Shown: positions 2-48,325, counted from the first letter of the stretch. The stretch is 58,169 nt of DNA from Candidatus Aenigmatarchaeota archaeon (GCA_039000165.1 JAWBTW010000003.1:21187-79355); one strand, 5' to 3'. The notes: generated from the sequence alone by a model not told the origin. Translations and numbers: made by a program.

Positions 2-892
2 AATGGAACTGTAGAAACAGTGTATGGTGAAGAATGCGAACTCCCAAACACTCAAAACAATAATTATTGCACAAATCCTTCTAATCATTGTGAATCTACT
101 CCTGGAAAGTATTGTATTTATAGCGATTTGTACGGTAATTGTAATGAAAATTGCATATGCGTACCTGATACTCCAACTTGTAATTGTTATTGGGGTGGTG
201 ATGGTGAAGGAGAAACTTATTGCAATGCTCAATGTGATTCAGATGACGACTGCCTACCAAGGTTAAGTGGAGATTACTGTTATTACAATAGAAAATGTTT
301 GGACAACTGTGTATGTTCAGAAGGAGATAAAGTGTTTTGTCCTCAAACAGTTCCTTACTTTGACCCTAACACCAACACATGTTACTATGGTGATTATAGA
401 GGATGTAACCAGAACGGATGTACTTTAGCAACTTGTAAGCCTGGACAAGGTGAGGCTTGTACGCAACACGGATGTACCGGTGCTATTGATTTTGATTTGA
501 AAGTTGGTGTAGAAAAACTAAACTCAACTGTTGATCAAACATTCTTTATAAAAGTTTATGTTAAAAACATAGGAAATTACGAGGATAACTATAAGTTTAA
601 GTTAAGCACCACACCAAATGTCCAGGCAAAGCTTTATGATACTGAAATAAGAAATGTTAAGCCGAAATCCTTGGTAACTAATACTATCCAAGCTAAAGTT
701 CTATCTCAAACACAACATGCGGAAATTAACATAACTGTTAGTTCTACCTCACTACCTTCAAGAAACAAAACAGTAGTAGTGGAAATTAAAGCTGAAAAAG
801 CAAATTTGAGTGACTTAAACACTTTTTCAGTAATTTTGCTACTTTTAATTTCTCTTTCAGTTTTAACTAAGAATATCCTAAGCCAAGAGTAA
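2..892 (+). CDS. Cys-rich surface protein, C-terminal part (5'-truncated by window edge), ending in Ig-like domain + SDLxxFS motif + TM anchor
   Basis: Frame is open from position 2 (track starts at GTG 20). Dense Cys motifs (CDSDDDC, C-x3-C-x-C). The last ~135 aa align by eye with the C-terminus of 22559..25633. Hydrophobic tail VILLLLISLSVL followed by K. Confidence 0.85.
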   Translation, partial: NGTVETVYGEECELPNTQNNNYCTNPSNHCESTPGKYCIYSDLYGNCNENCICVPDTPTCNCYWGGDGEGETYCNAQCDSDDDCLPRLSGDYCYYNRKCLDNCVCSEGDKVFCPQTVPYFDPNTNTCYYGDYRGCNQNGCTLATCKPGQGEACTQHGCTGAIDFDLKVGVEKLNSTVDQTFFIKVYVKNIGNYEDNYKFKLSTTPNVQAKLYDTEIRNVKPKSLVTNTIQAKVLSQTQHAEINITVSSTSLPSRNKTVVVEIKAEKANLSDLNTFSVILLLLISLSVLTKNILSQE

Positions 893-1880
893 AAGCATAA
901 ACTTCAAAAAAATCTCCCTTATAAACGTTTATGTAAGAGTTTTCATAACCTAAAACTTTTTTCCCATTCTCTTCATGTTTGTTAGAAGCCCAAAGAATTA
1001 AATAAGTTAAAATCCATTTCTCTTTATCGTCTAGGGAGCCATCTTTAGTTAAGTTTGCAACCCATGCAGTTCTACCATAATCCTTGTTTAAAATAACTGC
1101 CGGAACTTTTACGCCTGTAGAATTTTTGAAATTGAAAAGAATGTTAGCCTCACTTTTTGCTGTTATGTTAGCTAAGTTAAAAGAACTTGAAAAGGTATAC
1201 GGTGAACCAAAAATTCTACGCAGGTATTTCCAAGGCCCATAAACAATATCTCTAGAATTCTCTGGTTTTCTTGAAAGCTCTATGGTTTGAATATTATTTA
1301 TATAACCTGAAGCTGGAACCAAACCAAAAATTTTTTTATGTCCTTCGTCTGCGTCGAGCTGTGTATAGGTTATATCAGAAACTTCAACTATTCCTTTATC
1401 TTCAGCTAAAAAATTCTTTAGCAAATCGAAGTAATCATTTAAGTTGTTATAACCCCAAATCAGAAGAACGTCAGAAGAAGGAATAAGAGTTAAACTTGAA
1501 GAAACGATCTCAAATTTTATCTCCCTTCCGTTTAAAGTTATGGTGTTTAAAAAGGTTCCCAACTCATTTATAACCTCATCGCTACACTTACATGCTATGG
1601 TGATTTTCTTCTTAACAGCATTTTCTGTTGAAGTCCAAGCAACTAAGGGATGATTCACTAAATTTTTCTGGTAAAGAAATTCCGGAGATTCAAAAGAATA
1701 TAAATAAAGCTCTTTGTTTCTTTCCATCGAAAGAATTATGTCTCTTGAAATTAAGTTTAACCAAACCTTATCCCAATTGTGTTTGAAAGAAAGAGAGGGA
1801 AAGAAAAAATTAAACATCACAAAAAGTATTATAACTGCGCTAATCATCTCGACAACAAAAACAAAACCTTTTCTTTCCAT
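867..1880 (-). CDS. Pilin-like/pilus-associated protein with class III-like signal peptide
   Basis: N-terminus MERKG|FVFVVE followed by a hydrophobic helix; last gene of the pilus operon. Confidence 0.6.
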   Translation of the reverse strand: MERKGFVFVVEMISAVIILFVMFNFFFPSLSFKHNWDKVWLNLISRDIILSMERNKELYLYSFESPEFLYQKNLVNHPLVAWTSTENAVKKKITIACKCSDEVINELGTFLNTITLNGREIKFEIVSSSLTLIPSSDVLLIWGYNNLNDYFDLLKNFLAEDKGIVEVSDITYTQLDADEGHKKIFGLVPASGYINNIQTIELSRKPENSRDIVYGPWKYLRRIFGSPYTFSSSFNLANITAKSEANILFNFKNSTGVKVPAVILNKDYGRTAWVANLTKDGSLDDKEKWILTYLILWASNKHEENGKKVLGYENSYINVYKGDFFEVYAFTLGLGYS

Positions 1881-2393
1881 TTACCACACCTGAACCACTA
1901 ATTCAACATAGCCTCCTGTAGATAAAGCTGCTACCCTTCTTACAGTTATATTCGTTGGAGTTATCTTAACTTTCCCGGGAGGCGGGAAGCAACTAACCAG
2001 AATATTACGATTAGGTAATTGGAACATTAGCAAAGAAAAATCAAATTCAGCTCCAATTTTTTCTTTAACTTTTTCGTAGCCTTGAGGTTGACTGCAAAAA
2101 CTGTTCAAGCTATCGATTTTTGTCCGACTAAGAAAGTTTGTTTTGTTTTTTGAGAAATCAGAAAGGCCAAATCTGTTAACTGAATCAAGATCAAGTTCCC
2201 ACTCTATAGGATGACCAAAATCGTTTATTAAAAGTTCAGAAATTTGATAAGCTTCAAGTCTTTTTCTTTCGGTTTCCATTTCTTGGAGATAGATAGGATA
2301 GTACCTTAAAAGTAAGAAAAAAAGATAGGCTACAAAACTTATAAAAACTCCCATAGACGCTATAAATTCCACAAAACTTAGTTCGCCTTTCAT
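1881..2393 (-). CDS. Pilin-like protein (class III-like signal peptide)
   Basis: MKG|ELSFVE plus hydrophobic helix; abuts the TadC-like gene. Confidence 0.6.
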   Translation of the reverse strand: MKGELSFVEFIASMGVFISFVAYLFFLLLRYYPIYLQEMETERKRLEAYQISELLINDFGHPIEWELDLDSVNRFGLSDFSKNKTNFLSRTKIDSLNSFCSQPQGYEKVKEKIGAEFDFSLLMFQLPNRNILVSCFPPPGKVKITPTNITVRRVAALSTGGYVELVVQVW

Positions 2394-3397
2394 TAAGCTC
2401 CCATTATACCAAAGTTTACAAGTATGAAGAAGGAACCAAACGTTATTATAGCCATTATTATGCTATGTTTAACTCCTGAAATAGCAGAGCCCTCGCTAAT
2501 TTCTCCAGCAACCAAACCGCAAAAAATTGATTCAACTATTGCCATTAAGAAGAATAAAGAAGTGTAGTAAGAACCCATATTCTCTGGAGCTCTTATATCA
2601 CTCAAGTTGAAAATTGAAGCAATCCCCCCTAAGATATCGCAAAAAACGCATGAAAATTGAGAGCAAAAAGTACAAGGGTTTTGCAAACCAATCATCTCTA
2701 ATTGACCAATAGCTTCAACCTTGAATATGGGAATCATAAGCCTGTTTATTCCTACAACTATACCGATAAATAAAAAATTAATTATGTACATGAGAATAAC
2801 ATATTGACTAAGCAAACTTTTTCTTTCCTTTTCATAATCATCAAGAACTGTCATATTTTCTGCTACTGTCTCTAGAGTAGAAATTATGTCCCCGCCAGAA
2901 AGATAGGCTTCCTTAATTATTTTTGAGACGATTGTAAGCCTCTTGCTTGCTTTTACTCTTTCTGCAAACTGATCCAAAACTTTATCGAAAGACATGCCCC
3001 AAGAGATTTGGGAAGCCATCTTCTTGATTTCTGGTGTAAGCTTTCCATATTCATACTTACTTGCTATCATCACGGAAGTATGGAGTGGTGAGCCAGACCT
3101 CAAAGCTTCTATAACATCTCTCAAGAAAAAAGGAAATTTTTCTTCCATTTCTTTTATTTCTCTTGCTTTCATATACTTAAAGAAAAACAAAGGTCCAGCT
3201 ACAGCAAAAGCTGAAAGAATTATGGAATTTCCTAGCACTGCTCTATCGTTACTGAGTATTCCAACAGCTAAGAAAAAAGCACAAGCTACAACGGAAGCGA
3301 TCAAAACTTTTGTGTTAGTTGAGAGTTCAAACTTTTTAGGATAAAGCTTAACTTTTTTCGCTGGCTTAACTTTTTTCTCTTCTTTTGCTTTCATCAT
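2393..3397 (-). CDS. Type II secretion system F / TadC-like pilus membrane platform protein
   Basis: FPFFLRDVIEALRSG...YGKLTPEIKKM...GMSFDKVL pattern typical of the T2SSF domain; multiple TM helices; downstream of the pilus ATPase. Confidence 0.88.
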   Translation of the reverse strand: MMKAKEEKKVKPAKKVKLYPKKFELSTNTKVLIASVVACAFFLAVGILSNDRAVLGNSIILSAFAVAGPLFFFKYMKAREIKEMEEKFPFFLRDVIEALRSGSPLHTSVMIASKYEYGKLTPEIKKMASQISWGMSFDKVLDQFAERVKASKRLTIVSKIIKEAYLSGGDIISTLETVAENMTVLDDYEKERKSLLSQYVILMYIINFLFIGIVVGINRLMIPIFKVEAIGQLEMIGLQNPCTFCSQFSCVFCDILGGIASIFNLSDIRAPENMGSYYTSLFFLMAIVESIFCGLVAGEISEGSAISGVKHSIIMAIITFGSFFILVNFGIMGA

Positions 3398-4263
3398 TCA
3401 CCGCCTGGACTTATGCTTTTGATAAAAATTATGAAAGCTAAAGAAACAATAGGCAAGAAAAGAAATATTACTAAAAATTGAAGAAAGATTATGTTGCTTC
3501 CAATTCCTGCCAAACCACTAAAAATTGCTGAAAGAATGGTGAAAAAGACTGCGCCCAAAATTATTGCTGTTATATAAATTTCTATAAACATCGTTAGTTG
3601 ATGAGAAAATTCATAAAGCTTTCTCCTGTATTCTGTCATAAAAGTTCTTGCCTTTTCTCTTAAGAATGAATGAATATCTCCTCCTGTTGTACTCATAGAT
3701 AATAAGCCCCAAAAAAGTTCTCTCAAGTTTTTTGAGGGTGCCCTTTCTACTGCTCTTTCTAGAGCTGTATTTATGTCCATTCCGAAAGTTTCTGTATCGT
3801 TAACTATTGATTTTATTTCTTCTGTGAATTGACCGTATTCACTATAAGTTGAAAAAATCTTGAAAACTTTGTGCAAAGGGACTTTTGATCCTGCTATCGT
3901 TGATAAGTAGACAGAAGCAAAAGGTAAAATTTTATCTATTTCTTTTGCTCTCTCCCTTATTACCAGTTTAGGGTAGCTCATCATGGAATAAAAGAAAGTT
4001 AGGGAAAAGAACATAGAAATAGTAAAGGAAAAGATAAAACTAAACAAAGGGTTTTGGGAAATTATAACAAAAATGACACAAAGCATAGGAAACTCTGCAC
4101 AAAAAACTATTAAGCCTGTTAGGATTGCTATGCTTATGTATTCTTGGATAGAATAGCCCATTCTTGCTCTCCTTAGATCAGTTTTCACTTCTGTATAATA
4201 AGGAGCTAGTTTTTCTCCCCATTCACCAAAGTATCTCATAGCTATGGTAGTGTAAAAACCCAC
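3394..4263 (-). CDS. Type II secretion system F / TadC-like pilus membrane platform protein
   Basis: LPFASVYLSTIAGS...GMDINTALERAVERAPS...GGDI T2SSF pattern; TM helices. Confidence 0.88.
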   Translation of the reverse strand: MGFYTTIAMRYFGEWGEKLAPYYTEVKTDLRRARMGYSIQEYISIAILTGLIVFCAEFPMLCVIFVIISQNPLFSFIFSFTISMFFSLTFFYSMMSYPKLVIRERAKEIDKILPFASVYLSTIAGSKVPLHKVFKIFSTYSEYGQFTEEIKSIVNDTETFGMDINTALERAVERAPSKNLRELFWGLLSMSTTGGDIHSFLREKARTFMTEYRRKLYEFSHQLTMFIEIYITAIILGAVFFTILSAIFSGLAGIGSNIIFLQFLVIFLFLPIVSLAFIIFIKSISPGGE

Positions 4264-6050
4264 TATTTCCCACCCATTATGGAAGCCAAAACTTTTTCTG
4301 GAGAAGTGTAGTACATGTTAAAAACATTGTAAACATCTTTATAGCGGGTAATGTTCTTCTCCACCATCCAATTCAAGACAACCATTCTCCTTTCTAGCTC
4401 CTCTTTTACTTGCTGCTCTGTCAAACCCATAAATTCAGCTATTTTTTTCAAAGTCATACTTTTGTTAACAACTACAATTTTATCTTTCATAGCGTCCCAT
4501 CTAAAAACTTCGTTTACGATTGGCTCTTTCGTTTCTGGGTCTATCCCGACTATTTCTATGATTTGATTAACCTTTCTCACATGCTTTTCTCTGTATCTTA
4601 CTCTCAAAAGAAAAACCACCAAATCCAAACTTCCTATCAAACTAGCAGGTAATGAGATTGGTGGTGTGGTCAACCTATCAATAAGCTTGTTTATGTTTTC
4701 TGCATGAATCGTTGCTAAAGAAGGATGACCGGTTGCCATTTCTTGGAATAAAACATAAGCTTCTCTTCCTCTAACCTCACCTACAACTATATAGTCAGGC
4801 CTTTGTCTCAAGCTTTCTTTGAGTAAATCAAACAAATCTATTTCTCCTCTTAATTTTTTATCTTCAGTTCCTATTGCAGTTCTTGCAACATAAGGAACCC
4901 AGTGAGGATGTGGCAATTTAAGTTCAGGTGTATCTTCTATGGAAACTATTCTTTTTTCTGGCCTGATAAAAAGTGAAAGTACGTTGAGCAGAGTTGTTTT
5001 CCCTGAAGCAGTTCCTCCTGCAACTAAAACACTTCTTCCAAAATCAACAGCGAGCCAGAGAAAAGCCAAGGAAGGAATGTCGATAGTATTATACTTCAAG
5101 AGGTGGATTGGAGTTAAAGGTTCAATCGTAAACTTTCTAATGGTAAAATTGGAACCTCTTCTTGCTATATCCGTAGCCAAAGCTGCTTGGACTCTGCTTC
5201 CGTCGGGAAGCGAACCTCCAACAAGGGGGGTAGCTACTGATATGGATTTTCCACAAAGTTGAGCAAGTCTATGAATGAAAGAATCAAGCTCGTCTGGATC
5301 TTCAAAAACTATGTTTGTGACTATGGATCCTAGCTTAGGGTTTCTGTGAAAAACAAATATGGGAATGCCCACCCCGTCACAACTTATATCTTCTATATTT
5401 TCATCAGCCATTAAAGGTTCTATCCTTCCCAAACCGATGAAATCCCTTTCTATATAGTATCTGATTATGAGCTTTTCTTTCTCGCTTACTTCTATCCTGT
5501 AATAGCTTAGCAAATCGTCTATGGTTTTATAAAGATAATTTTTCATTTCAAATTTTTTCAATTTTCCAAACTCTACATCGAGCTTTTCTTGAATCAATTC
5601 CTTGAGCTTATTTATTATTTCTTTAAGTCTATCTGTTAGTTCAGGTTCGATAACTTGGTAAACATACTTGTTTAACGAAGTATCCCAAAAGATTTTTGCG
5701 TATGCAAAAACAAGCTCATCCTTTTGAGGCTTTCTTGGAATCAAAGGATATGCTAGGGTAATCTTCCTTTTTTCTTCTTCTGTTAAAGGAATCTCACCAA
5801 TCTCTATCTTTTCGGGTATAAATTCTGGTATTTCTATTCCATCTACAAGCTTTGGTTTCTCGACAGGCTTAATTTCTGTTTCCTTTTTTTCTTCCTTTTT
5901 TTCCTCTATCCTCTCTATTTTTATGGGAATTGTAATAGGAGCTAAGCCTTGAAAACCAATTTGCGAAGGCAAAACTTGAATTTGTTTGCTCATGTATTTT
6001 TTATATCCTTCCTTTGCCCTTCTTAAAAAATTTTTTAAAAGCTCCACCAT
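4263..6050 (-). CDS. Type IV pilus assembly ATPase (VirB11/TadA/FlaI family)
   Basis: Walker A GGTASGKTT, Asp box IEDTPE, LRQRPDYIVVGEVRG, His box GHPSLATIHA. Confidence 0.95.
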   Translation of the reverse strand: MVELLKNFLRRAKEGYKKYMSKQIQVLPSQIGFQGLAPITIPIKIERIEEKKEEKKETEIKPVEKPKLVDGIEIPEFIPEKIEIGEIPLTEEEKRKITLAYPLIPRKPQKDELVFAYAKIFWDTSLNKYVYQVIEPELTDRLKEIINKLKELIQEKLDVEFGKLKKFEMKNYLYKTIDDLLSYYRIEVSEKEKLIIRYYIERDFIGLGRIEPLMADENIEDISCDGVGIPIFVFHRNPKLGSIVTNIVFEDPDELDSFIHRLAQLCGKSISVATPLVGGSLPDGSRVQAALATDIARRGSNFTIRKFTIEPLTPIHLLKYNTIDIPSLAFLWLAVDFGRSVLVAGGTASGKTTLLNVLSLFIRPEKRIVSIEDTPELKLPHPHWVPYVARTAIGTEDKKLRGEIDLFDLLKESLRQRPDYIVVGEVRGREAYVLFQEMATGHPSLATIHAENINKLIDRLTTPPISLPASLIGSLDLVVFLLRVRYREKHVRKVNQIIEIVGIDPETKEPIVNEVFRWDAMKDKIVVVNKSMTLKKIAEFMGLTEQQVKEELERRMVVLNWMVEKNITRYKDVYNVFNMYYTSPEKVLASIMGGK

Positions 6051-10300: not shown

Positions 10301-10394
10301 GGGCCTATAGCTCAGCCTGGTTAGAGCAATCGCCTTATATGGCTCGCTTTCGTGAGAAAGCGATAGGTCGAGGGTTCAAATCCCTCTAGGCCCA
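10301..10394 (+). tRNA. tRNA-Ile(UAU) with 19-nt intron at 37/38 (10340..10358)
   Basis: Acceptor GGGCCTA/TAGGCCC, D-stem GCTC/GAGC, anticodon stem ATCGC/GCGAT, loop CT-TAT-A|A, T-arm GAGGG-TTCAAAT-CCCTC. BHB central helix CUUA/UGAG. Spliced length 75 nt; CCA not encoded. Confidence 0.92.
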
Positions 10395-13347: not shown

Positions 13348-13971
13348 ATGTTAAAAAAATTTTTTGCAGTTTTCGGAGTATTTCTCTTCTCTTTTATTTC
13401 TTACTTATTCTTAAGCAGTCCTACAGCTATGAGCGTTTCACAAACAAACCCAAACTTTTGGCTTCCTTTGAGCGTTTCAGTAGTATTTTTAGCTCTTCTT
13501 ATAATTCTTCTATCCGTAGATGAAAGAAAACTTGCAGAAAAAGTTGGAATTTTGAAAAGGATAGAAGAACAAGAAGCTATAGAAGAAGTGAGAAAAGTTA
13601 GAAGACTGTTTGGTCTTGAGAAATATCAGGAAGAACTTAGAAAAGCGATAGAAAAAGCTTCGTCTATCTATCAGAATATAAGGAAAGAATTCGCAGAAAG
13701 TGAAAGAAGTGGTCTAAAAGGCGAAGAAGACAAATTGTTTTACGCAAAAACTATGTTTGAAGAGCTTTATGGAGCTGTTCACAATTTGAAGCTTAAAAAG
13801 CCAAACAAAGCGATAAAATACCTAGAAGATGCAAGAAAAGCGTGTGAAGAATTAGGCTATTCTGATTTTGCTGAAGAGCTTGCATATTTGCAAGCAAGGA
13901 TGGAAGTAACTTATACCCAACTGAAAAAAATGCTAAAAGAGATTCAAGAAAAAGTGGAGACCTTTTTATGA
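13348..13971 (+). CDS. Two-TM membrane protein with helical cytoplasmic domain (paralog B)
   Basis: Same architecture as paralog A; EKVGI..FGLEKY..ELRK.IE..S.IY.NIR pattern is shared. Confidence 0.8.
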   Translation: MLKKFFAVFGVFLFSFISYLFLSSPTAMSVSQTNPNFWLPLSVSVVFLALLIILLSVDERKLAEKVGILKRIEEQEAIEEVRKVRRLFGLEKYQEELRKAIEKASSIYQNIRKEFAESERSGLKGEEDKLFYAKTMFEELYGAVHNLKLKKPNKAIKYLEDARKACEELGYSDFAEELAYLQARMEVTYTQLKKMLKEIQEKVETFL

Positions 13972-13976
13972 TTAAA

Positions 13977-14101
13977 TAGCGGGGAGTGGATTTGAACCAC
14001 TGACCTTTCCCCCAGACTTAGTCTGTCCGGGTGTCGCATGAGCAGCCATTATGAGCCATTCGCAAAGCTTCGGCGAGCACTCCAGGCTGCTCTACCCCGC
14101 T
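13977..14101 (-). tRNA. Initiator tRNA-Met(CAU) with three introns (29/30, 37/38, 43/44)
   Basis: A1:U72 acceptor AGCGGGG/CCCCGCT. Removing 14058..14070, 14033..14049 and 14007..14026 yields a 75-nt tRNA with CCGGG-CT-CAT-AA-CCCGG (three G:C pairs, the initiator signature). Each junction has a BHB-like motif. Confidence 0.9.
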
Positions 14102-14233: not shown

Positions 14234-14548
14234 ATGTATGAAGAGAAAAGTATCCTTAAAAGAACAAAAAATTACATCAAGAGTTATTTTACTTTACCAT
14301 GTCTAATTGGTGGTGCTACAGGCACTGCCTTAGGCTACTGGGGATCTTTAACTGCATTATCTCTTTACGATATTATAACTAACAAATTGCCACAAGCTAT
14401 AAACACAGGCAATCTTAGCATTTTTCTATATTCAAATTATTGGGATGCTGCAGGAAAAATTGCTTTCGTAAGTGGAATTGCAGGCTTAATTTTAGCAAGA
14501 AGAGTAGAAAGATCGACAATTTCTTTTCTCAAAAGAATCTTAAGGTGA
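14234..14548 (+). CDS. Small membrane protein with glycine-zipper-like helices
   Basis: LIGGATGTALGYWG and FVSGIAGLIL helices; 4 nt upstream of the TrmB gene. Confidence 0.7.
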   Translation: MYEEKSILKRTKNYIKSYFTLPCLIGGATGTALGYWGSLTALSLYDIITNKLPQAINTGNLSIFLYSNYWDAAGKIAFVSGIAGLILARRVERSTISFLKRILR

Positions 14549-22558: not shown

Positions 22559-25500
22559 TTACATGCTATTGCTGTACATTCTCTTTATTAAAAAAATTAC
22601 CGAAACTCCTATAATCAAAACAATAGAGAAAACATCTAAATCGCTCATGCTACTACTTCCAATTTTAAGTTTTATGGTAATTTCTTTACTTCTTCTTGAG
22701 CTTTTTGAGGTTACGAGAACTTTAACTTCTTCTCCTTGGGAAGAAAATGCAAAAACTTTTATTTCTACTTTTGTAGAAACTACCGAACCTGGTAAAACAT
22801 TTGAAATTTCTTTATCATAAACTCTCGCTTGAACGTTAGAAGAAGTTGTAACGCTGAAATTGTAAGAATCTTTTGTTAATCCTGTATTTTTTACGTAAAT
22901 AGAAACAGGAAAAGCTTGACCTACAGTAACGCTTAATTCGCCAATTCCAGTCCAAATATCAAAATCAGCTTGTGTGCTACCTATACACTTGCAAGAAGCG
23001 TCACAAGTACCACCTGTACCACAGTCTGAACCTACTTTTTTACCATCACATTCTAAATCAGCTCCACATGCAGCATTACATATATCAGTACAAGAACCTG
23101 CTGAACAACCAAAAGGATTACAGGTTTGAGTATTTGCCAATTGCCAAAACTTATTACAATTTCCGAACCCGTCACATCTATATAGTTTTTGACCTTTTGT
23201 ACAAGGATCTTCACACTCATTTTGAATTAAGCAAGCAACAGAAGACAAACATTGCCCAGCTGAACAAGAGGTATCTACAGGACAATTTTCTGTATGACTA
23301 TAAACGCAATTGCAAGAACTATCGTAAACATAAACTTTTCTTCCACATGAACCATCACATTCTGACTTACATCTGTCGCCTGGAGTGCATGTTACACTTC
23401 CAGATACATTATAACTACCTGTAGCAACCGTATTTCCGTTAGGATCTTTTATTTTTAAATCCAAAGTACAACTTGTACCAGCTCTCTTAACTGTCACGCT
23501 AAAAGCATTAGTCAAAGTGCTACCTCTGTTTATAGAGAAAGAATTTGTGCTTATGCCAGTACTTGCGGAATCACAGCTTCCTGAAGTTGAATAAGAAATA
23601 GAATAAGTTATTGGGGAAATGCAATGACTGTTTGAAGAATCGGTAACATTTATGTTCCAAGTCTTAGTAGTATCACTCCAGGTTTCAAACTCAGGAGTAA
23701 TCGATAAGGAATAAGAACAGGCTCCACAGGGAGTTGTTTGCCATTTATATCCGTTATCGTAACAACACCAATAATCTGTGTTGTTGCAAGATTGCTTAGT
23801 GTTCACCTTAGTGGAATCACAAGTCCATTCATTTTTTACTATCCAATCACCAGTCCAGGCACAAACATTGCCAAACAAAGGAACACACTCATAATCTCTA
23901 CATTCTTCCCTTAGTTTTGAACCATACACAGCACACCTGCAATAATTGTTATCGTAATTGTCACAATTCTCAGATTGGTAAACACAATTTCCGTTTGAGC
24001 ATGTACCATAATGAACATAGTCACAAGTAATATCCTTACATTCATCTCCTGAAGAATGCGTGGCAGATTTTGAACAATGTTTTGTTCCGCAAGGGGCACC
24101 ATTATTGTAATCAAAATTAGCAGTTTGAGTAGGAGTATTACCTTTATCTGCGAACAAAATAGCTTCCATATCAATCTTTACAGTTGCAGGATTTGCTGTT
24201 CCTGTGTAGCCACCGCTCCAATTAGCAGTCCAGTTTTTGAATAGGTAACAAGTATAAGGAGATGCTGAGATAGACGCATTTGCGCCGTAATTGTACCATC
24301 CTGCGCCGGAAATATTGCCCCAGCTAGGATTGTTAGCTGTAACATTTAGGTAAACCTGATAAGCATAATAGGCTGTATAGGTTGCTGGGTAAGAAGGAGT
24401 AATTATCGAATGTGTTTGAGATCCTCCATCAGACCAGCTTAAAAAAATGAAACGAATAGCTGGTTTTCCTTTTAGATAATTGGGAGAAGGTGCTGATAGA
24501 TTATGTGAAGATCCTGGCAACCACTCAAAATAGCTTGGAGTTCGGTAAGGAACTTTGTCTACTTCTATAGTCAAACCCTGAGGAGATGAGTCGATTGTAA
24601 TTATCACAGGTTGAATTTTTGTATAACTACATACCTTTCTGTTCACAATGATGCTACAATTTTGTATTTCATCCATATAAGAGTCTGAGTAATTACACTG
24701 ATAAGCATCGCTAGAAGTTCCGGACATAACTCTTACTTTATAAGTATAGGAAGTATTTGTAACTACACATTTATCTATGGTAGACGGATCGTTATCGTTA
24801 CAATCGGAATCACTGTTACATTGATTGCTACCTGGCGCAATTAGAGTTTTAGAGTAATAGTTCCAAGTACATGCATCTTTGTCATAAACATTACATGCTT
24901 CTTGTTTTGAACCTTGATAGATGGAGATAACCTGCCACCAGTAGGCACCTGGAGCGGCAGTACCATAATCCGTTCCCTTAAAGTAAAAGGAAATGTTAAA
25001 AGGGTCTCCTACATTTACAACTGAAGGGCAACTTAAATCTTTAATCTTAGACTTGCTTACAGGTGTTTCGTCTAAATCAGCAGGAGCACCACAAGCAGAT
25101 TCACATTCTTTATCACCTTCTTTAGGTTCATCTCTTGGATAAATCGTAGTAGTGTCTGCCATGATTTTAACCTCTATTGGAGAATAAGCATCACATACCA
25201 CACACTTACCTTCTTTCCCATCAAATTTACCTTCATACCTGTCACAATAACATCCCCAATCCCACCTGTCATAATAAACTGCACAAACGGTATCTTCGGT
25301 AGAACCTGGGCAAGAACCTGTTTTGCATGCTGAATAGTACCCTGGACAACCTGCTAGACCTCCACAACAGTCTGGAAAGCCTCTACACAATTCGGAACCT
25401 ATTGCACAACTTTGCCAAGGTGACCAACCTATTTTAGCAAAACCACCTTCGCAGTACCAAAAAACCCCATCAGTACACTTATAACTTGGAGCTGGTCTAC

Positions 25501-25633
25501 CGCCACAATCGCAACCGCAAGCGGCAAAAGAATCCTTTACCATCAGTAGAAAGGAAAAAACTATTAGAGGTATTAAAATTGTGTTCCAAACTTTCAATCT
25601 CTTGAAGTTCATTGCCAACACTACCATTAACAC
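22559..25633 (-). CDS. Large Cys-rich surface protein with InlB B-repeat-like and Ig-like domains and C-terminal SDLxxFS-TM anchor
   Basis: N-terminal signal peptide (likely start ATG 25612 or 25627); many Cys clusters; GNISGAGWYNYGANASISASP..YLFKNWT repeat-like unit; C-terminal module shared with 2..892. Confidence 0.88.
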   Translation of the reverse strand: MLMVVLAMNFKRLKVWNTILIPLIVFSFLLMVKDSFAACGCDCGGRPAPSYKCTDGVFWYCEGGFAKIGWSPWQSCAIGSELCRGFPDCCGGLAGCPGYYSACKTGSCPGSTEDTVCAVYYDRWDWGCYCDRYEGKFDGKEGKCVVCDAYSPIEVKIMADTTTIYPRDEPKEGDKECESACGAPADLDETPVSKSKIKDLSCPSVVNVGDPFNISFYFKGTDYGTAAPGAYWWQVISIYQGSKQEACNVYDKDACTWNYYSKTLIAPGSNQCNSDSDCNDNDPSTIDKCVVTNTSYTYKVRVMSGTSSDAYQCNYSDSYMDEIQNCSIIVNRKVCSYTKIQPVIITIDSSPQGLTIEVDKVPYRTPSYFEWLPGSSHNLSAPSPNYLKGKPAIRFIFLSWSDGGSQTHSIITPSYPATYTAYYAYQVYLNVTANNPSWGNISGAGWYNYGANASISASPYTCYLFKNWTANWSGGYTGTANPATVKIDMEAILFADKGNTPTQTANFDYNNGAPCGTKHCSKSATHSSGDECKDITCDYVHYGTCSNGNCVYQSENCDNYDNNYCRCAVYGSKLREECRDYECVPLFGNVCAWTGDWIVKNEWTCDSTKVNTKQSCNNTDYWCCYDNGYKWQTTPCGACSYSLSITPEFETWSDTTKTWNINVTDSSNSHCISPITYSISYSTSGSCDSASTGISTNSFSINRGSTLTNAFSVTVKRAGTSCTLDLKIKDPNGNTVATGSYNVSGSVTCTPGDRCKSECDGSCGRKVYVYDSSCNCVYSHTENCPVDTSCSAGQCLSSVACLIQNECEDPCTKGQKLYRCDGFGNCNKFWQLANTQTCNPFGCSAGSCTDICNAACGADLECDGKKVGSDCGTGGTCDASCKCIGSTQADFDIWTGIGELSVTVGQAFPVSIYVKNTGLTKDSYNFSVTTSSNVQARVYDKEISNVLPGSVVSTKVEIKVFAFSSQGEEVKVLVTSKSSRRSKEITIKLKIGSSSMSDLDVFSIVLIIGVSVIFLIKRMYSNSM

Positions 25634-28671: not shown

Positions 28672-29274
28672 ATGAGAGAATTTATACTCAGAGCTTCAAA
28701 AGCAGTTACTACGCCAGATTTTAACTTAAATGATTTAGCAGGTTCGGCAGGAAGAATGGACTTGGTTTGTAGATGCATTTCTAGTGCTCTCTGGATTTCT
28801 AACGATTTGAGAAGAGATGCTAGAATATTTGTGGTTTTGGAAGGACCACCAGTTCCACCAAAGATGTTAGTATTTGAAGGAAGCTCTTTAAAAGGAGTTA
28901 ACCCTGACGAAAGGAACATAGCCTCGCATATAAAAAAAGCTTTGAGGCTTGGTCTTAACTTAAAACTTAACGAGGAAATAGAAGTTTCTCCTGGAATCAA
29001 GGTTGCAAAAAAAAGTTTTGAAACTCTGATAAAAGAAAAAATAAAAGAAACTCAAGTTTTATACTTACATCCAAAAGGAAAGGATATAAAGGAAGTGGAA
29101 GCTAAAGAAAAAGTTGCTTTCGTCTTAGGCGATCATGTGGGAATTGCCAGAAAAACTGAAAAGTTGATGGAAAGACTCGGTATAGAGAAAGTTTCGCTAG
29201 GAAAAACGATTTATTTGGCAAGTCATGCTATAGTTATAGTAAATTACGAGTTAGATAGAAGATGGTTAAAATGA
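28672..29274 (+). CDS. trmY: tRNA (pseudouridine54-N1)-methyltransferase
   Basis: LNDLAGSAGRMDLVCRC, NPDERNIA, FVLGDH.G SPOUT motifs. Confidence 0.95.
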   Translation: MREFILRASKAVTTPDFNLNDLAGSAGRMDLVCRCISSALWISNDLRRDARIFVVLEGPPVPPKMLVFEGSSLKGVNPDERNIASHIKKALRLGLNLKLNEEIEVSPGIKVAKKSFETLIKEKIKETQVLYLHPKGKDIKEVEAKEKVAFVLGDHVGIARKTEKLMERLGIEKVSLGKTIYLASHAIVIVNYELDRRWLK

Positions 29275-30554
29275 AAATAGAAGAAATCGCCTTAAAAGTT
29301 TTGAAAAATTATACATTATGCGACAATTGTTTAGGAAGGATTTTTGGTCAAGTTCTAACTGGCCTTACCAACAAAGAAAGAGGAAAAATAATAAGGTACT
29401 TTATAGCTTTTTTGCTAGATTCTGGAGAAAAAATAGAAGTAAAACCTTCGAATTTTTACAAAATTGAGTTCAGAAACATAAGCTTAAAGGTAGAAAAACC
29501 TGAAAGATGCTCTCTTTGTAGAAACATATTTGAAAAAAAGGAAAAAATAGCAGAAAAGATAGCAGAAAAGTTGAAAGGAATAGAGTTTGAGACTTTTGTT
29601 ATAGGATCAAAAATTCCTGACGAAATTCTAAAGGTTGAAGAAAAAATTTGGGAAGAAGTTGGAATAGAATTTGTTGAATCAATAAAGTCAGAAATAAATA
29701 GAGAAATAGGGAAAGAAGTTGCAAGAATTACAAAGAAAAAATTTGAACCAAAAAATCCTGACATTACTGTCCTGATAGATTTAGAAAAAGGAAGAATAAA
29801 GATTGAAATAAGAAGCTTGTTTGTTTTTGGTGGTTATAAAAAACTTGTTAGGAACATACCTCAATCAAAATGGGTTTGTAGTAGATGTAAGGGAAAAGGA
29901 TGCAAATATTGTAAAGGAAAAGGGAAACTATATCCAACTTCCGTTCAAGAAATAATAGAAAAACCTTTGTTGAAAGCCACGAGAGGAAAAAGAAGTTTCA
30001 TGCACGCAACAGGAAGAGAAGACATAGATGCAAGATGTTTAGATTACAGACCATTTATAATAGAAATCGAAAACCCTTTAAGAAGAAACATCAACTTGAA
30101 GAAAATCGAAAAAGAAATAAACAAGTCAAAAAAGGTTAAGGTAAAAGGCTTGAGAATGACTGAAAAGGAGTTTATAAAAATTTTAAAGTCTGCTAGATTG
30201 GACAAAACTTATTTAGCTGAAGTTGAGTTTGAAAAAAATGTAGAGAAAAGTAAGTTAAAAGAGCTAAAAATTTTGGAAAAAGAGCCGATACTTCAAAAAA
30301 CTCCTCTGAGAGTTTTACATAGAAGAGCTGACAAGTTCAGGAAAAGAAAAGTGAAAAGCATTTCCTATAAGCTTTTGGGAAAGAAAAAGCTTCTTTTAAA
30401 AATAAAGGCTGAAGCAGGACTTTACATAAAAGAACTGATTACAGGAGATGAAGGAAGAACTAAGCCTAACGTACAAGAAATTTTGGGGAACAAAGTTAAA
30501 AAGATAAAGTTAGATGTTATAAAAATACATGATGAAAAACTAAAATTTTGGTGA
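29271..30554 (+). CDS. pus10: tRNA pseudouridine(54/55) synthase Pus10
   Basis: [13 protein letters not shown] domain, catalytic [22 protein letters not shown] 29271 overlaps the trmY stop (ATGA). Confidence 0.96.
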
Positions 30555-32570: not shown

Positions 32571-32753
32571 ATGCCAAATTTAATTCTTATAATCATCTTA
32601 CTAATCCTAATTTTTCTTCTCTTCCTAAACTTAGACTGTATAATGGAAGGAATAAACAGAGAAAACAAAGCTTTTTGCTTTTACCAAGATTTTGGGTTGA
32701 ACAAAATAGGCGCAAAAACTATTCCTTTAAGCAAATGTGTTTGTTTCCCTTAA
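32571..32753 (+). CDS. Small membrane-anchored Cys-containing protein
   Basis: ATG 32571, strongly hydrophobic N-terminus, four Cys; downstream of tRNA-Arg. Confidence 0.5.
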   Translation: MPNLILIIILLILIFLLFLNLDCIMEGINRENKAFCFYQDFGLNKIGAKTIPLSKCVCFP

Positions 32754-33658
32754 TTTTTTAAAACAACCTTCATAAAATCATAAGCAACTTTCGTGTTTTC
32801 AAAAATCTTTTTTGCATTTTCTTCTAAATCTTTTACGTCAGTATACCTTCTACTTATGTGAGTTAAGATTAATTGTTTAACGTTTGCCTTTTTTGCTATT
32901 CTTGCTGCTTGTTTAACGTCAGCATGAGCTTTTCCACTTTCTTCCTCAAGAAAAGTTCCGTCATGAATTAGCAAATCAGCGTTTTCAGAAATTTTTACAA
33001 TATTATCGCAAGGTTTTGTATCACCTGTATAAACAACCTTTAAACCTTTCTTTAAATTTGCTACTTCTTCGATTCTAATCTCTTTTCCCTTATATTCTGC
33101 TTTCCCATATTTTTTAAGTTTCTTGAGCCAATAACCTCTTTTTAAACCAAGCTTTTTCATTTTTTCCAAATCAATACTCCATCTATCCTTTTCCTTAAAA
33201 GCATAAGCTACAGAAGGAATAGAATGAAAAGCTGGAATTGAAAAAATTTGATAATCTTCTGTTTCATCTATAAGAGTAACTTTTTCACCATGAAAAGGAA
33301 CGTTTATAGCAACAACAGGAAACCTACAACCAAAATAGCCTAAGCTTAAAATGTTTGCCACAAACTTTTCAGCTTCTGGGGCAAAAATTTTCAATTCTTT
33401 TTTTCTTTTTTCCAAGCTCATAGTTTGGAGCAAAGGAATTAAACCAGCAAAATGATCAGCATGCCAATGAGTTATGAAAATCTTATCTATTTTCATAAAG
33501 CTAATTCCAGCAAGCATTAATTGCTTTTGGGTTCCTTCACCGCAATCAAAAAGTAAAGTTTCTTTTTTCTTGCTATAGTACTCTAAAGCTATTGCTGGGT
33601 GGTTTCTTTCTTTGCTCGGTATACCAGAAACCGTGCCCAAAAAAGTTATTTCTATCAC
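32750..33658 (-). CDS. rnz: Ribonuclease Z
   Basis: FLGTVSGIPS..R, LFDCGEGTQ, THWHADH, YTGDT, LIHDGT, LTHISRRY. Confidence 0.97.
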   Translation of the reverse strand: MIEITFLGTVSGIPSKERNHPAIALEYYSKKKETLLFDCGEGTQKQLMLAGISFMKIDKIFITHWHADHFAGLIPLLQTMSLEKRKKELKIFAPEAEKFVANILSLGYFGCRFPVVAINVPFHGEKVTLIDETEDYQIFSIPAFHSIPSVAYAFKEKDRWSIDLEKMKKLGLKRGYWLKKLKKYGKAEYKGKEIRIEEVANLKKGLKVVYTGDTKPCDNIVKISENADLLIHDGTFLEEESGKAHADVKQAARIAKKANVKQLILTHISRRYTDVKDLEENAKKIFENTKVAYDFMKVVLKN

Positions 33659-33680
33659 AATCCTAATTATAGGAAAATCT

Positions 33681-35111
33681 TTATATTAGGCTTTCCTTTT
33701 CAAAGTATTTTCTCAAGAATATGCCAAAATTTTCATCTTTTTTAACAAGCTCCATTATCTTTTCATTCTCGTAAATTAGCTCAAAACCTTTTACTATTTG
33801 TTCAGCTATGTGATTTGGTATTCCTTTTGCTTTAAGCACTTCCAGATTCTTGCTTAGACTGTCAAAAATTTTCTCTCTTGCGGTGATGAATTTTCTTTTA
33901 ACTTCAACACACCAGAAATTGTCTTCTATAAAAGGTCCAGTAATTGCTTGAGTTTTATACTTTTCTAAAAACCTTTCAGAATCGTCCAAATCAAAAATTT
34001 TCGGTCCAATTCTTTTTTGAATTAAAGGCAGCTTGGAAACTTCCATCTCAAGTAGAACTACAGCCAAATCTTTTTCATTTGTATAAACATCCTTCCTTAA
34101 AACTTTAAACTCATACTTAACTTCTTCCAAGATACTTTGAATCCTTTCAGCAAATTTTCTTAGCTGAGGCCAAAGAATGTCAGGGACAACTTTTGGCGGT
34201 GAAAATTTAATAAGTATTATTTCCGTTCTTCTTTTCATTTGATAAACTATTAGTTCATTTTCAGTTATTGGCTCGATTTTTCTCTTAAAGAAAAGCTCTT
34301 CTCTCGGGTTTTCCAAGAATTCTTTAGCCAGTTTTTTAAACTTGAAGAAATTAGTAGAAGAGAGGGCAGCACAGGTATTTCTGTTTTTGTCTGTCGGGTC
34401 TATAAGAATTAAAGCTTGGTTTTTAAACATCCTTATAAGCTTAGGATAATCACTTTTCGAATAATAATTTTTTATTTGAATTATTTCACCTGGTTTCCAG
34501 TTTGCAGCCTTTTTCATGAGTTTAAGGAAACTCTTGTACTTTATTATAAGCAACTCACAAACATAACCAGAAAAACCTTCAGTTTTTGCATCAGCTCCAT
34601 ATATTTCGTTAGCCTCACAAAACTTCTTCAAAAGTCTTACTTCCTCTGCCATTTTTTTAGTTAAATTCTTTTCTATGAACCTAACATGGAAAGGAGTTCT
34701 GTCTACTGCGGACTTTATTTTTTCTGGACTTTCTACTTCATAACAAGGCACTATATCAACGCTTATTTCTTTAATTTTCCCTGAAACATAAGGATGTTGC
34801 GCATACTCTATTGTGTATTCTCCCTTCATCCTTTCTATAACTTTTTTTCCTATTTCTAGACCAAGCTTTTCGAGCTCTTTTTCTTTCAGTTCAGGAGGGA
34901 AAAGAATGAAAACGTCAAACTCTCTTTTTTCTGGAAGCCAAGTATCTCTTGTTATACTTCCTACAAGCATAGCTTTTGCCTTGTATTTTTTTGCTTCCTC
35001 GTTAGCAATTTTTAGAACACGCTGAGCTAAAGATTTCAGTCTTCTCTCTTCCTCTTTCTTTGGCTTTATTTTTTCAAGTACTTCTTTCAATACTTTTGCG
35101 TGCTTATCCAT
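33681..35111 (-). CDS. cca: CCA-adding enzyme, archaeal class I
   Basis: GSITRDTWL...EFD, YAQHPYV, VDIVPC, SAVDRTPFH, GFSGYVCELL, IDPTD..RN. Confidence 0.96.
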   Translation of the reverse strand: MDKHAKVLKEVLEKIKPKKEEERRLKSLAQRVLKIANEEAKKYKAKAMLVGSITRDTWLPEKREFDVFILFPPELKEKELEKLGLEIGKKVIERMKGEYTIEYAQHPYVSGKIKEISVDIVPCYEVESPEKIKSAVDRTPFHVRFIEKNLTKKMAEEVRLLKKFCEANEIYGADAKTEGFSGYVCELLIIKYKSFLKLMKKAANWKPGEIIQIKNYYSKSDYPKLIRMFKNQALILIDPTDKNRNTCAALSSTNFFKFKKLAKEFLENPREELFFKRKIEPITENELIVYQMKRRTEIILIKFSPPKVVPDILWPQLRKFAERIQSILEEVKYEFKVLRKDVYTNEKDLAVVLLEMEVSKLPLIQKRIGPKIFDLDDSERFLEKYKTQAITGPFIEDNFWCVEVKRKFITAREKIFDSLSKNLEVLKAKGIPNHIAEQIVKGFELIYENEKIMELVKKDENFGIFLRKYFEKESLI

Positions 35112-37031: not shown

Positions 37032-38591
37032 CTATAAAAGTTTTGAAACATAAGCTCCATCTTGTTTATAACCAAGTCTGTAGTAGTATTTTTTGACGCC
37101 TGCTCCACTAATAACAACAATTTTATTTTTATCAAACTCTTCCTTTGCAATTCTTTCTGCCTCTTCTAAAAGTCTTCTTCCAAAACCTTTGTGCTGAAAA
37201 GCTTCTTCTTTAAACTCTCCTACAGGAACCAAAGGCCCATAAACATGAAGCTCCCTTACTAGAGCAGTTTTTTCTGTTATTTCCTTTCTAAAAGGTTTGA
37301 ACGGAATCCTTAATCTAAGGAAAGCGATTAAAATATCATTTTTTATATCTTCAAAACTTAAGAAAACTTCTTCTCCCTGTGAAGCCTCATAATCAAGCCT
37401 ACAAAGCTTTATTTTATCAAAATCAATGCTCACACCTTTTTCAAGCTTATGACCAACTTCTCTGTATCTTATCTCTTTTATCTTTATTCCCAGTTCTTCT
37501 GCTCTTTTCTCGACAAATTCTCTTAGATTGCTTTTCTTAACTCCCGCAACTATATGAGTTGCAGGTATATCTCTTTGAACCCTTATTATTCTGCAATACT
37601 TTGGAATGTACTTCAAAGCTCTTGCTATTAGTTCTATTGCTTCCTTTTCTTCCAAAGGTTTATACTCACCTTTTTTCCACATTTCATAAAGTTTTGTTCC
37701 CTTAATCACAAGAGTAGGGTAAATTTTAAGTGAGTCTGGTCTAAAGTCAGGGTTTTCAAAAATTTCTTTAAATTGATTTAAATCTTCTTCAAAACTTGTA
37801 AACAGGCCTGGCATAACATGCCAAGTAATTTTTAAGCAAGAGTCTTTTGCTAGTTGCGTTGCTTTAATAACATCTTCTAAAGAATGAATTCTTTGCGCTT
37901 TCCTCAAAATTTCCGGATAAATAGACTGAACTCCAATTTCGACTCTTGTCGTAGCTAGTTTAAGCATTTGATTTATATGCTTCTCAAAACAAAAATCAGG
38001 TCTTGTTTCTATGGTTAAACCAGAACACCTTATTCTTCCTTCCTCGTTTAGTCTTATAGCTTCTTCTAAGCTTTTTGCCTCACTTCCGTTCAAAGCATCA
38101 AAAAGTCTTTTAACAAACCATTCTTGATATTCTTTTTCTAAAGCAAGAAAAGTTCCACCTATTATTATAAGCTCAACCTTATCGATGCTGTGACCCATTA
38201 AACGATACTGATTTATTCTACAATTCACCTGAAGAAAAGGATCATAATTATTCTGTATAGCCCTTTGAATCGCAGGTTCTAAACCAACGTAGCTTTGTGG
38301 TGCATTCTCACCTTTTGGGCAATAAATACATATACCAGGACATTTTGCAGGTTTAGGTACAACAGTGATAACTGAAACTCCAGAAATTGTTCTTCCTGGT
38401 TTCATAACTAAAAAATCCTTAAGCTTTTCCCTTTCTTCTTTTGTGCAAGCTTGAAGAATTTGAATGCTTGTTGGAATTTTCTTTGCATTATATTTTTTAC
38501 AAACTCTTTTAACTATTGACCAAGCTTTTTCTCTTGTAAGCTTTTCTTTTTTTAGTTCCTCGATTATCTCTCTTAGCAGTTTTTCTTCCAT
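37032..38591 (-). CDS. elp3: tRNA uridine(34) acetyltransferase Elp3 (radical SAM + KAT)
   Basis: RTISGVSVI, CPGICIYC (CxxxCxxC), IETRPD, LRLR, RELHVYG, QHKGFG. Confidence 0.97.
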   Translation of the reverse strand: MEEKLLREIIEELKKEKLTREKAWSIVKRVCKKYNAKKIPTSIQILQACTKEEREKLKDFLVMKPGRTISGVSVITVVPKPAKCPGICIYCPKGENAPQSYVGLEPAIQRAIQNNYDPFLQVNCRINQYRLMGHSIDKVELIIIGGTFLALEKEYQEWFVKRLFDALNGSEAKSLEEAIRLNEEGRIRCSGLTIETRPDFCFEKHINQMLKLATTRVEIGVQSIYPEILRKAQRIHSLEDVIKATQLAKDSCLKITWHVMPGLFTSFEEDLNQFKEIFENPDFRPDSLKIYPTLVIKGTKLYEMWKKGEYKPLEEKEAIELIARALKYIPKYCRIIRVQRDIPATHIVAGVKKSNLREFVEKRAEELGIKIKEIRYREVGHKLEKGVSIDFDKIKLCRLDYEASQGEEVFLSFEDIKNDILIAFLRLRIPFKPFRKEITEKTALVRELHVYGPLVPVGEFKEEAFQHKGFGRRLLEEAERIAKEEFDKNKIVVISGAGVKKYYYRLGYKQDGAYVSKLL

Positions 38592-40427: not shown

Positions 40428-40523
40428 TAGCCCCGAGCGGATTCGAACCGCTGTCACGAGGTTTCTCCCAGCGACCAGAGCCTTCTACCCTTTTCGTATG
40501 CTTGGCCGCTGCACCACGGGGCT
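40428..40523 (-). tRNA. tRNA-Gln(CUG) with two introns (29/30 and 37/38)
   Basis: AGCCCCG/CGGGGCT acceptor. Removing 40483..40493 (11 nt) and 40463..40474 (12 nt) gives CGAGG-CT-CTG-GA-CCTCG and a 73-nt tRNA. Central helices AUAC/GUAG (3 of 4 pairs) and CUCU/GGAG. Confidence 0.9.
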
Positions 40524-47864: not shown

Positions 47865-47978
47865 CCCCGCTTAGCTCAATGGTAGAGCGACCGGCTGTAG
47901 GCGAGCGCTTTGGCGCTTGCTAGTAGCTATCGCTCGGTCAATACCGGTAGGTTGGGAGTTCAAGTCTCCCAGCGGGGA
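47865..47978 (+). tRNA. tRNA-Tyr(GUA) with 42-nt intron at 37/38 (47901..47942)
   Basis: C1:G72 acceptor CCCCGCT/AGCGGGG, ACCGG/CCGGT stem, CT-GTA-G|A loop; spliced length 72 nt. The junction motif is non-canonical. Confidence 0.88.
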
Positions 47979-48048
47979 CTATTATTTTTAGGCTATAAAA
48001 ACCAAAAACTTTAAAAGTTTTTAAATTCCAAATATCATAAATATATTC

Positions 48049-48164
48049 GTTGGCGGCCAAAGCGGGGAGGAAACATCTGTTCCCGTTCCGAACACAGTAA
48101 TTAAGCTCCCCAGCGATCTGGGTTGTACTTTCCGAAAGGAAGGGAACTCCAGGACGCCGCCAAC
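48049..48164 (+). rRNA. rrf: 5S rRNA (stand-alone, not with 16S/23S)
   Basis: Terminal helix GTTGGCGGC/GCCGCCAAC, CCCGTTCCGAACACAG..TTAAGC core, TTCC-GAAA-GGAA loop; 116 nt. Confidence 0.95.
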
Positions 48165-48239
48165 AATTTAAATTGGTGTCTGTATTAAAGAAAAAACAGA
48201 GAATGATGACTTTTCCTTAGAATTCCATGAAATAAGGAT

Positions 48240-48325
48240 GCCTCGGTGGTGTAGGGGCCTAATGGATAGGCTAAGCATACGAGCCTGTCACGCTCGTGAC
48301 ACGGGTTCAAATCCCGTCCGAGGCG
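48240..48325 (+). tRNA. tRNA-Asp(GUC) with 13-nt D-arm intron at 21/22 (48262..48274)
   Basis: GCCTCGG/CCGAGGC acceptor, G73, CGAGC-CT-GTC-AC-GCTCG arm. The 22-nt D-loop resolves via BHB (GGCC/GGCU helix, UA|A and AA|G bulges). Spliced length 73 nt. Confidence 0.9.

Follow-up and report, generated by a model that had tools for sequence, protein, structure and literature searches.

A three-intron initiator tRNA gene with overlapping splice motifs in a thermophilic DPANN archaeon

In a stretch of archaeal DNA of 58,169 nt, hereafter called the window, we have identified a gene for the initiator tRNA-Met(CAU) that is interrupted by three short introns, whose splice motifs in part draw on the same nucleotides. 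The gene, which is located on the (-) strand at positions 13977..14101, is complete with a length of 125 nt and does not encode CCA. The removal of all three BHB introns yields a canonical tRNA, as is the case for multi-intron archaeal tRNA genes, which are defined by carrying at least two introns of this kind. We are nearly certain of the gene and of its intron structure as modelled and consider it quite likely, based on the comparison of sequences, that the locus constitutes the orthologous and functional initiator tRNA gene of thermophilic Aenigmatarchaeota, with introns at 29/30, 37/38 and 43/44. It resides in an intergenic gap with ORFs on either side (13348-13971 and 14234-14548) and has a G+C content of 58%, compared to about 33% in the window. 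TATA-like AT-rich stretches are found upstream of the gene, which are uninformative in a genome with a G+C content of 33%.

The mature sequence is distributed over four exons. Exon 1 (14071..14101, (-)) encompasses tRNA positions 1-29 with the 5' strand of the acceptor stem, the D-arm, G26 and C27-G29, and its RNA sequence AGCGGGG UA GAGC AGCCUGGAGU GCUC G CCG is identical to the exon sequence of the related locus L004. Exon 2 (14050..14057, (-); positions 30-37, GGCUCAUA) holds the CAU anticodon and is followed by a micro-exon of 6 nt, exon 3 (14027..14032, (-); positions 38-43, ACCCGG), and by exon 4 (13977..14006, (-); positions 44-73, AGGUC AGUGG UUCAAAU CCACU CCCCGCU A), which contributes the variable loop, the T-arm, the 3' strand of the acceptor stem and the discriminator A73. 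Excision of introns of 13, 17 and 20 nt, which make up 50 of the 125 nt of the gene, leaves a product of 75 nt that folds into a perfect cloverleaf (-34.1 kcal/mol) of standard organization, presents the CAU anticodon within a 7-nt loop and is called as tRNA-Met(CAU) by ARAGORN. Hallmarks of archaeal and eukaryal initiators are an A1:U72 pair and three consecutive G:C pairs (G29-G31:C39-C41), both of which are contained in the spliced product (AGCGGGG...CCCCGCU and CCGGG/CCCGG). The identity as initiator tRNA-Met, the lengths and positions of the introns and the coordinates that were proposed in a first-pass annotation of the window are exact, with a perfect 75-nt initiator tRNA as product. 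Since the gene ends at A73, which is followed by TTTAAT, CCA must be added post-transcriptionally.

The gene is detected neither by ARAGORN in its default mode nor by Rfam at gathering or permissive thresholds, and because standard finders miss it, the genome would seem to be devoid of an initiator tRNA. Its description enables a concrete correction to the annotation of Aenigmatarchaeota MAGs. In its intron mode (-i), ARAGORN mis-calls the gene as tRNA-Leu(UAA) containing a single intron of 45 nt. Although this output assigns a leucine identity to the locus, the underlying model places G.G and A.G mismatches within the anticodon stem, is devoid of the long variable arm that is typical for tRNA-Leu and passes over the perfect three-intron solution, which matches the relatives exon for exon. 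We attribute practically no probability to this assignment, which is refuted by the comparative alignment described below.

BHB splice motifs consist of two 3-nt bulges located on opposite strands with a 4-bp helix in between and are cut after the second bulge nucleotide on each side. Their strict hBHBh' form includes two flanking helices, h and h', each with a minimum length of 2 bp. For the analysis of the gene, we derived a register from the 37/38 case, in which the 4-bp helix H is followed by two bulge nucleotides of the exon, the cut and one nucleotide of the intron, with a mirrored arrangement on the 3' side. Intron 1 (14058..14070, (-); 13 nt, AAGCUUUGCGAAU, site 29/30) belongs to the relaxed hBH type. 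All four pairs are formed in its central helix U24-C27/GCGA (UCGC/GCGA), which is accompanied by an outer helix of 2 bp (C23:G31 and G22:C32) and an inner helix of 0-1 bp. Intron 2 (14033..14049, (-); 17 nt, AUGGCUGCUCAUGCGAC) occupies the canonical 37/38 site. Its central helix C32-A35/UGCG (CUCA/UGCG) contains three of four pairs and a U33.C mismatch, its inner helix comprises 3 bp and its outer helix, which initially consists of G31:C39 and G30:C40, is extended from 2 to 5 bp after the loss of intron 1, at which stage the motif has acquired the strict hBHBh' form. Intron 3 (14007..14026, (-); 20 nt, ACAGACUAAGUCUGGGGGAA, site 43/44) is of the HBh' type, with three of four pairs in the central helix A38-C41/GGGG (ACCC/GGGG), an inner hairpin of 5 bp (CAGAC/GUCUG) and an outer helix of 0-1 bp. 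As in motif 2, there is one mismatch in its 4-bp helix (A38.G), which is replaced by an A:U pair in the relatives L001 and L008. The helices named for the three introns in the first-pass annotation are all found in the canonical BHB register with zero boundary shift. Relaxed BHB forms are described as substrates only of an EndA of broad specificity (PMC5829648), and because one of the flanking helices is missing in motif 1 as well as in motif 3, and the central helices of motifs 2 and 3 contain a mismatch, such an enzyme has to be assumed here.

The affiliation of the host and the conservation of the locus emerge from a comparison with related genomes. Homologues of the adjoining class I LysRS are named Candidatus Aenigmatarchaeota at identities of 100%, 89%, 84%, 76% and 72%, and the syntenic MAG loci are titled Aenigmatarchaeota, with several of them originating from the Tengchong hot spring DRTY-6, for which a temperature of 50-60 C is reported (PMC8407114). 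From these names, titles and the temperature of the spring, we infer that the window derives from a thermophilic DPANN archaeon. A LysRS-based scan of genome contigs provided 8 loci, in which the 75-nt product was aligned, with introns left free, to the corresponding intergenic region next to TrmB, Orc1/Cdc6 and LysRS. In these 8 MAG loci, we find an orthologue of the initiator gene at the syntenic position. The gene of L004/L010 (LysRS identity 76%) is interrupted once, by an intron of 18 nt at 10/11, and the exons equal the product of the window in 75 of 75 nt. The genes of L001/L002/L005 (LysRS identity 89%) are interrupted at the same three sites as the gene of the window by diverged introns of 13, 16 and 21 nt, and L001 shows a compensatory change in the T-stem, where AGUGG/CCACU is converted to GCACG/CGUGC. 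L006 contains a single intron at 13/14. The remaining genes harbour four (L008, 3532-3678), five (L007, 3157-3336) and six BHB introns (L003, 4265-4453, and L009, 14081-14253), with introns that all fit the BHB register and the shortest exons measuring 5-6 nt. According to ARAGORN, all syntenic genes splice to a 75-nt tRNA-Met(CAU). By scanning metagenomes for the conserved 5' portion of the gene, we obtained 120 further loci, and the comparative set encompasses 61 distinct genes with 142 introns. Multi-intron initiator genes are common in these Aenigmatarchaeota relatives, and intron-free copies are present among the related metagenome genes. The introns of the 61 genes cluster at 10/11, 20a/21, 29/30, 37/38, 43/44 and 59/60, which identifies the three sites of the window as recurrent hot spots. 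High-intron spliced alignments of L109 and L111 obtained low scores and were discarded as spurious, and intron calls at 62/63-65/66, 40/41 and 42/43, which show poor BHB scores, probably result from misplaced boundaries.

The larger set of sequences also allowed us to assess the splice motifs themselves. The BHB register fits 29 of 29 introns in the 8 syntenic genes with three or four of the four central pairs formed, and a one-base shift is confined to L006. At least three of four central-helix pairs are found in 89.5% of the 142 introns from the 61 related genes, compared to 17% in random pseudo-introns. When pairs were counted on fixed-register blocks of homologous introns, those of the window were found to be conserved in introns from 10-21 other genes. 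In case of the 29/30 central helix, 100% of the cells are paired in 16 homologous introns, compared to 28-53% in slid controls, and a compensatory double change from C27:G to U27:A is observed among homologues. For the 37/38 motif, 77.8% are paired and for the 43/44 motif 92.5%, in both cases with a score that was reached in 0 of 500 shuffles. The inner helix of the 43/44 motif displays compensatory changes at four of four tested pairs in 10 genes.

These comparisons bear on the question of whether the locus might be a decaying pseudogene, with the work being done by a separate intact initiator gene elsewhere in the genome. The failure of standard tRNA finders to call the gene would fit such a scenario, yet the exons show 100% identity to those of a relative that is only 76% identical in its LysRS, the T-stem of L001 has changed in a compensatory manner, the pairs of the BHB motifs are kept by covariation and the synteny of the locus is conserved. 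In addition, a second copy of the initiator gene is absent from all 8 syntenic loci. We thus consider decay as highly improbable. Altogether, the identity of the exons and the fact that the syntenic genes splice to tRNA-Met(CAU) lead us to exclude chance, a pseudogene and the call as tRNA-Leu(UAA) as explanations for the observed arrangement.

The first-pass annotation had pointed out that the motifs share nucleotides, with C32 serving motifs 1 and 2 and A38-C41 serving motifs 2 and 3. We can reproduce both overlaps and find that G31 is also common to motifs 1 and 2. Within motif 1, G31 and C32 are both part of the outer helix, whereas in motif 2 they belong to the outer (G31:C39) and central (C32:G) helices, respectively. 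Similarly, A38-C41 constitute the central helix of motif 3, and the same nucleotides supply motif 2 with its 3' bulge and outer helix. The mutual exclusivity that was claimed on this basis holds for the 37/38 motif, which is incompatible with either neighbour, but not for the motifs at 29/30 and 43/44, which share nothing and can coexist. The related statement that the anticodon stem supporting the 37/38 motif would be unable to form before the outer introns are removed is too strong, as G30:C40 and G31:C39 are available beside helix H already in the primary transcript. Intron 3 flanks the anticodon stem and does not split it.

To quantify the energetic requirements to display each motif, we employed constrained nearest-neighbour folding in ViennaRNA at temperatures between 37 and 80 C, an approach that takes no account of proteins, pseudoknots or tertiary contacts. 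For the primary transcript, an MFE of -54.3 kcal/mol is calculated, and the H helix of motif 1 is already part of this fold. Display of motif 1 in the primary transcript costs +2.4 to +6.9 kcal/mol and that of motif 3 about +6 kcal/mol. Conversely, motif 2 requires +24.5 kcal/mol at 37 C and +13.7 kcal/mol at 80 C, and these costs drop stepwise upon removal of introns 1 and 3 to +10.4 and +4.4 kcal/mol, respectively. The same ranking of the motifs is obtained for L001 and L008. As the last remaining intron, 37/38 is thus still penalised by +4 to +10 kcal/mol, which either reflects the incompleteness of the model or a step that needs help.

Based on these calculations and on the analogy to a characterized tRNA, we somewhat favour a pathway in which the introns at 29/30 and 43/44 would be removed first, in either order, and the intron at 37/38 last. 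The primary transcript would present the 29/30 and 43/44 motifs, and the loss of both introns would permit the formation of the G:C-rich anticodon stem and with it the presentation of the canonical 37/38 motif as final step. The analogy is provided by the three-intron tRNA-Ile of the red alga Cyanidioschyzon merolae, where RT-PCR has revealed that the outer introns are removed first, with introns 1 and 3 leaving in either order, and 37/38 last (PMC3728597). The general idea of an ordered removal is already incorporated in tRNAscan-SE 2.0. As a different possibility, splicing might be unordered, with alternative folds being sampled, each BHB motif forming transiently and EndA removing introns in any order, such that the overlaps would be kinetically irrelevant. 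This is consistent with the fact that the primary transcript can be folded so as to contain any of the motifs, including motif 2 with an outer helix of at least 2 bp, with the mutual compatibility of motifs 1 and 3, with smaller energy differences between motifs at 50-80 C and with the variable order in which introns 1 and 3 leave in C. merolae. Yet for the primary transcript, the display of motif 2 requires 10-18 kcal/mol more than that of motifs 1 and 3 at all modelled temperatures, and in C. merolae, the sole experimental precedent that we found, no intermediate had lost the 37/38 intron first. Unordered splicing therefore appears rather unlikely to us. With respect to the obligatory order asserted in the first-pass annotation, an ordered removal is plausible from folding, but its obligatory character finds no support, given the compatibility of motifs 1 and 3 and the possibility to fold each motif in the primary transcript.

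The folding calculations have also drawn our attention to a potential interaction between introns. Intron 2 contains a segment (nt 3-10 of the intron, GGCUGCUC, 14040..14047, (-)) that is the Watson-Crick complement of G10-C17, its predicted partner (GAGCAGCC, 14085..14092, (-)), which covers the 5' strand of the D-stem and the start of the D-loop. The resulting 8-bp helix is present in the MFE structure at 37-80 C, and a complement of 8 nt is found in 0.3% of trials with shuffled introns (p = 0.003). A complement of at least 6 nt to positions 8-17, in slightly varying registers, exists in 11 of 12 genes that combine a 29/30 intron with a short 37/38 intron and in one of 15 genes that lack a 29/30 intron (Fisher p = 1e-5, a value that ignores kinship). 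In silico deletion or shuffling of intron 2 raises the cost of motif 1 in the gene of the window by +4.4 or +2.7 kcal/mol, respectively, and over 11 genes by about 2 kcal/mol on average (Wilcoxon p ~0.01). An open D-stem is precisely what motif 1 requires, since helices of the motif use the D-stem nucleotides 22-25. The pairing between GGCUGCUC and the 5' strand of the D-stem would thus melt the latter and free nucleotides 22-27 for the 29/30 motif. Within the window, a comparable case is offered by tRNA-Gln(CUG) (40428-40523, (-)), which carries A1:U72 and introns at 29/30 (11 nt) and 37/38 (12 nt). In its MFE structure, which includes the 29/30 helix, C13-G18 of the D-arm are paired with nucleotides 1-6 of the 37/38 intron (shuffle p = 0.04 for the complement). 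We tentatively propose from these models that the 37/38 intron might act in cis as folding helper for the 29/30 motif, which would render the introns interdependent with 37/38 leaving last, although we would place this proposal somewhat below even chances. If true, the cooperation of introns could partly explain the accumulation of up to six introns in one essential tRNA gene. The co-occurrence of a complement against the D-stem in the 37/38 intron with an intron at 29/30, as predicted from sequence and folding, may be new. A second class of 37/38 introns, GCUCCAGG[CU], is found in L003, L062, L107 and L131 and complements positions 14-21 of the D-loop instead of the D-stem; in three of these four genes, it accompanies an intron at 32/33.

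It had been suggested in the first-pass annotation that the interlocked introns of the one tRNA needed for all initiation might have been selected as a control point of translation initiation or as protection from integrative elements that target tRNA genes. The gene is indeed the sole initiator gene within the window, and the idea of a protection against integration exists for split tRNA genes in PMC4033280, where it is cited as an untested hypothesis of Randau and Soll. Still, no particular architecture is conserved, as the syntenic orthologues carry 1, 3, 4, 5 or 6 introns at varying sites and metagenome relatives none. Introns are found in six of the seven tRNA genes of the window (one each in Ile-UAU, Arg-GCG, Tyr and Asp, two in Gln-CUG, three in the initiator and none in Val), which does not single out the initiator, and there is neither an integrase nor an att-like remnant among the scanned ORFs of the window. 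The proposed roles thus find no support, and we regard either of them as improbable. Since intron number and site vary among syntenic orthologues and metagenome copies are intron-free, the interlocked architecture is evolutionarily labile. This variability fits a rapid turnover of BHB introns, the same behaviour that is reported for Thermoproteales (PMC4033280, PMC4090602) and for the Asgard lineages Atabeyarchaeia and Freyarchaeia (PMC11291895). As judged from the compared sequences, the arrangement is not a conserved regulatory device but reflects how quickly such introns are acquired and lost in a lineage where relaxed motifs are evidently tolerated.

The initially stated rarity of triple-intron tRNAs has to be corrected as well, given that multi-intron initiator genes are common in the Aenigmatarchaeota clade and that a three-intron initiator tRNA(CAU) is tabulated for the Asgard archaeon Atabeyarchaeia-2 (PMC11291895 Supplementary Data 4). 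In the latter genome, more than 90% of the tRNA genes contain introns (PMC11291895). The likeness of its initiator gene, which rests on the table entry, is limited by the affiliation with another superphylum and by much longer introns in a gene of about 190 nt, and the study analyses neither overlaps between motifs nor the order of splicing (PMC11291895). Similarities to the multi-intron tRNAs of Thermoproteales (Sugahara et al. 2007/2008, as summarised in PMC8450103, PMC4033280 and PMC4090602) concern adjacent introns that can be so close to each other that one has to leave before the next motif can form and a rapid, lineage-specific gain of introns. Unlike in these Crenarchaeota, the host is a DPANN archaeon, whose relatives exceed three introns and reach numbers of 4-6. 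The nuclear tRNA-Ile(UAU) of C. merolae shares with the gene of the window three BHB introns including one at 37/38, and the order of removal determined by RT-PCR equals the one predicted here (PMC3728597). It differs in its eukaryotic origin and in the location of its outer introns in the D-stem and T-loop with motifs that are independent, whereas nucleotides are shared in our case. Non-canonical and multiple tRNA introns are also found in ARMAN and other DPANN, where they are tolerated by virtue of EndA variants with an extra loop; ARMAN-2 has at most two introns per gene, and Aenigmatarchaeota are outside of these studies (PMC3239211, PMC5829648).

Three-intron archaeal tRNA genes, including an initiator gene, are thus already known, and the gene of the window is the first described for its lineage. 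The maximum number of introns in archaeal tRNA genes is given as 'up to three' (PMC8450103) or 'a maximum of three' (PMC4033280), and in our literature search we have found no report of archaeal tRNA genes with more than three introns or of tRNA introns in Aenigmarchaeota. The 4-6 BHB introns that are predicted from sequence in one tRNA gene of the relatives, up to twice the published maximum, may thus be new; their confirmation would call for a revision of the textbook value of at most three introns in a tRNA gene. Our results extend heavy disruption of tRNA genes to a DPANN lineage that has been outside of surveys of EndA/tRNA co-evolution. Together with its relatives, the gene forms a naturally occurring series in which one essential tRNA carries 0 to 6 introns and which is well suited for the study of how motifs with shared nucleotides are resolved, of the mutual assistance of introns and of the rate of gain and loss of BHB introns.

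With respect to maturation, the 125-nt transcript would, by the established archaeal pathway, be cut by EndA at the 3-nt bulges on either side of each 4-bp helix, and the exons would be joined by an RtcB-type ligase followed by the addition of CCA. The CCA-adding enzyme (33681-35111, (-)) is encoded in the window, where it adjoins tRNase Z (32750-33658, (-)). Genes involved in tRNA maturation are concentrated at 32750-35111 (-), 29262-30554 (+) and 37032-38591 (-) and include Pus10 and an Elp3-like radical-SAM/GNAT protein. Neither EndA nor RtcB is found among 30 window ORFs scanned with Pfam, and a tblastn search with M. jannaschii EndA (sequence as in PDB 1a79) has given no match to EndA in the window or in 132 loci. 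The EndAs of DPANN archaea show several architectures with extra loops that are linked to disrupted tRNA genes, in a survey that does not cover Aenigmatarchaeota (PMC5829648). Among other proteins encoded in the window are those of a type IV filament gene cluster with T2SS-E/F-like components (867-6050, (-)) and a 1024-aa protein (22559-25633, (-)), for which Pfam identifies solely an InlB B-repeat-like domain. Pfam matches are absent from several ORFs nearby.

The remaining tRNA genes of the window display features of their own. tRNA-Ile(UAU) (10301-10394, (+)) contains a canonical intron of 19 nt with a perfect BHB motif and is named 'tRNA-Stop(tta)' by ARAGORN in its default mode, and tRNA-Gln(CUG) is mis-called by the same program as Ser or Phe. 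In tRNA-Tyr(GUA) (47865-47978, (+)), the 42-nt insert at 37/38 fits the BHB motif poorly, with two of four central pairs, and may contain nested introns or have other boundaries. The gene for tRNA-Asp(GUC) (48240-48325, (+)) holds 9-13 extra nucleotides in the D-loop, for which there are three alternative placements, each with four of four pairs in the BHB central helix. Together with a 5S rRNA (48049-48165, Rfam 80 bits) located between them, the genes for tRNA-Tyr and tRNA-Asp form a compact cluster at 47865-48325 (+).
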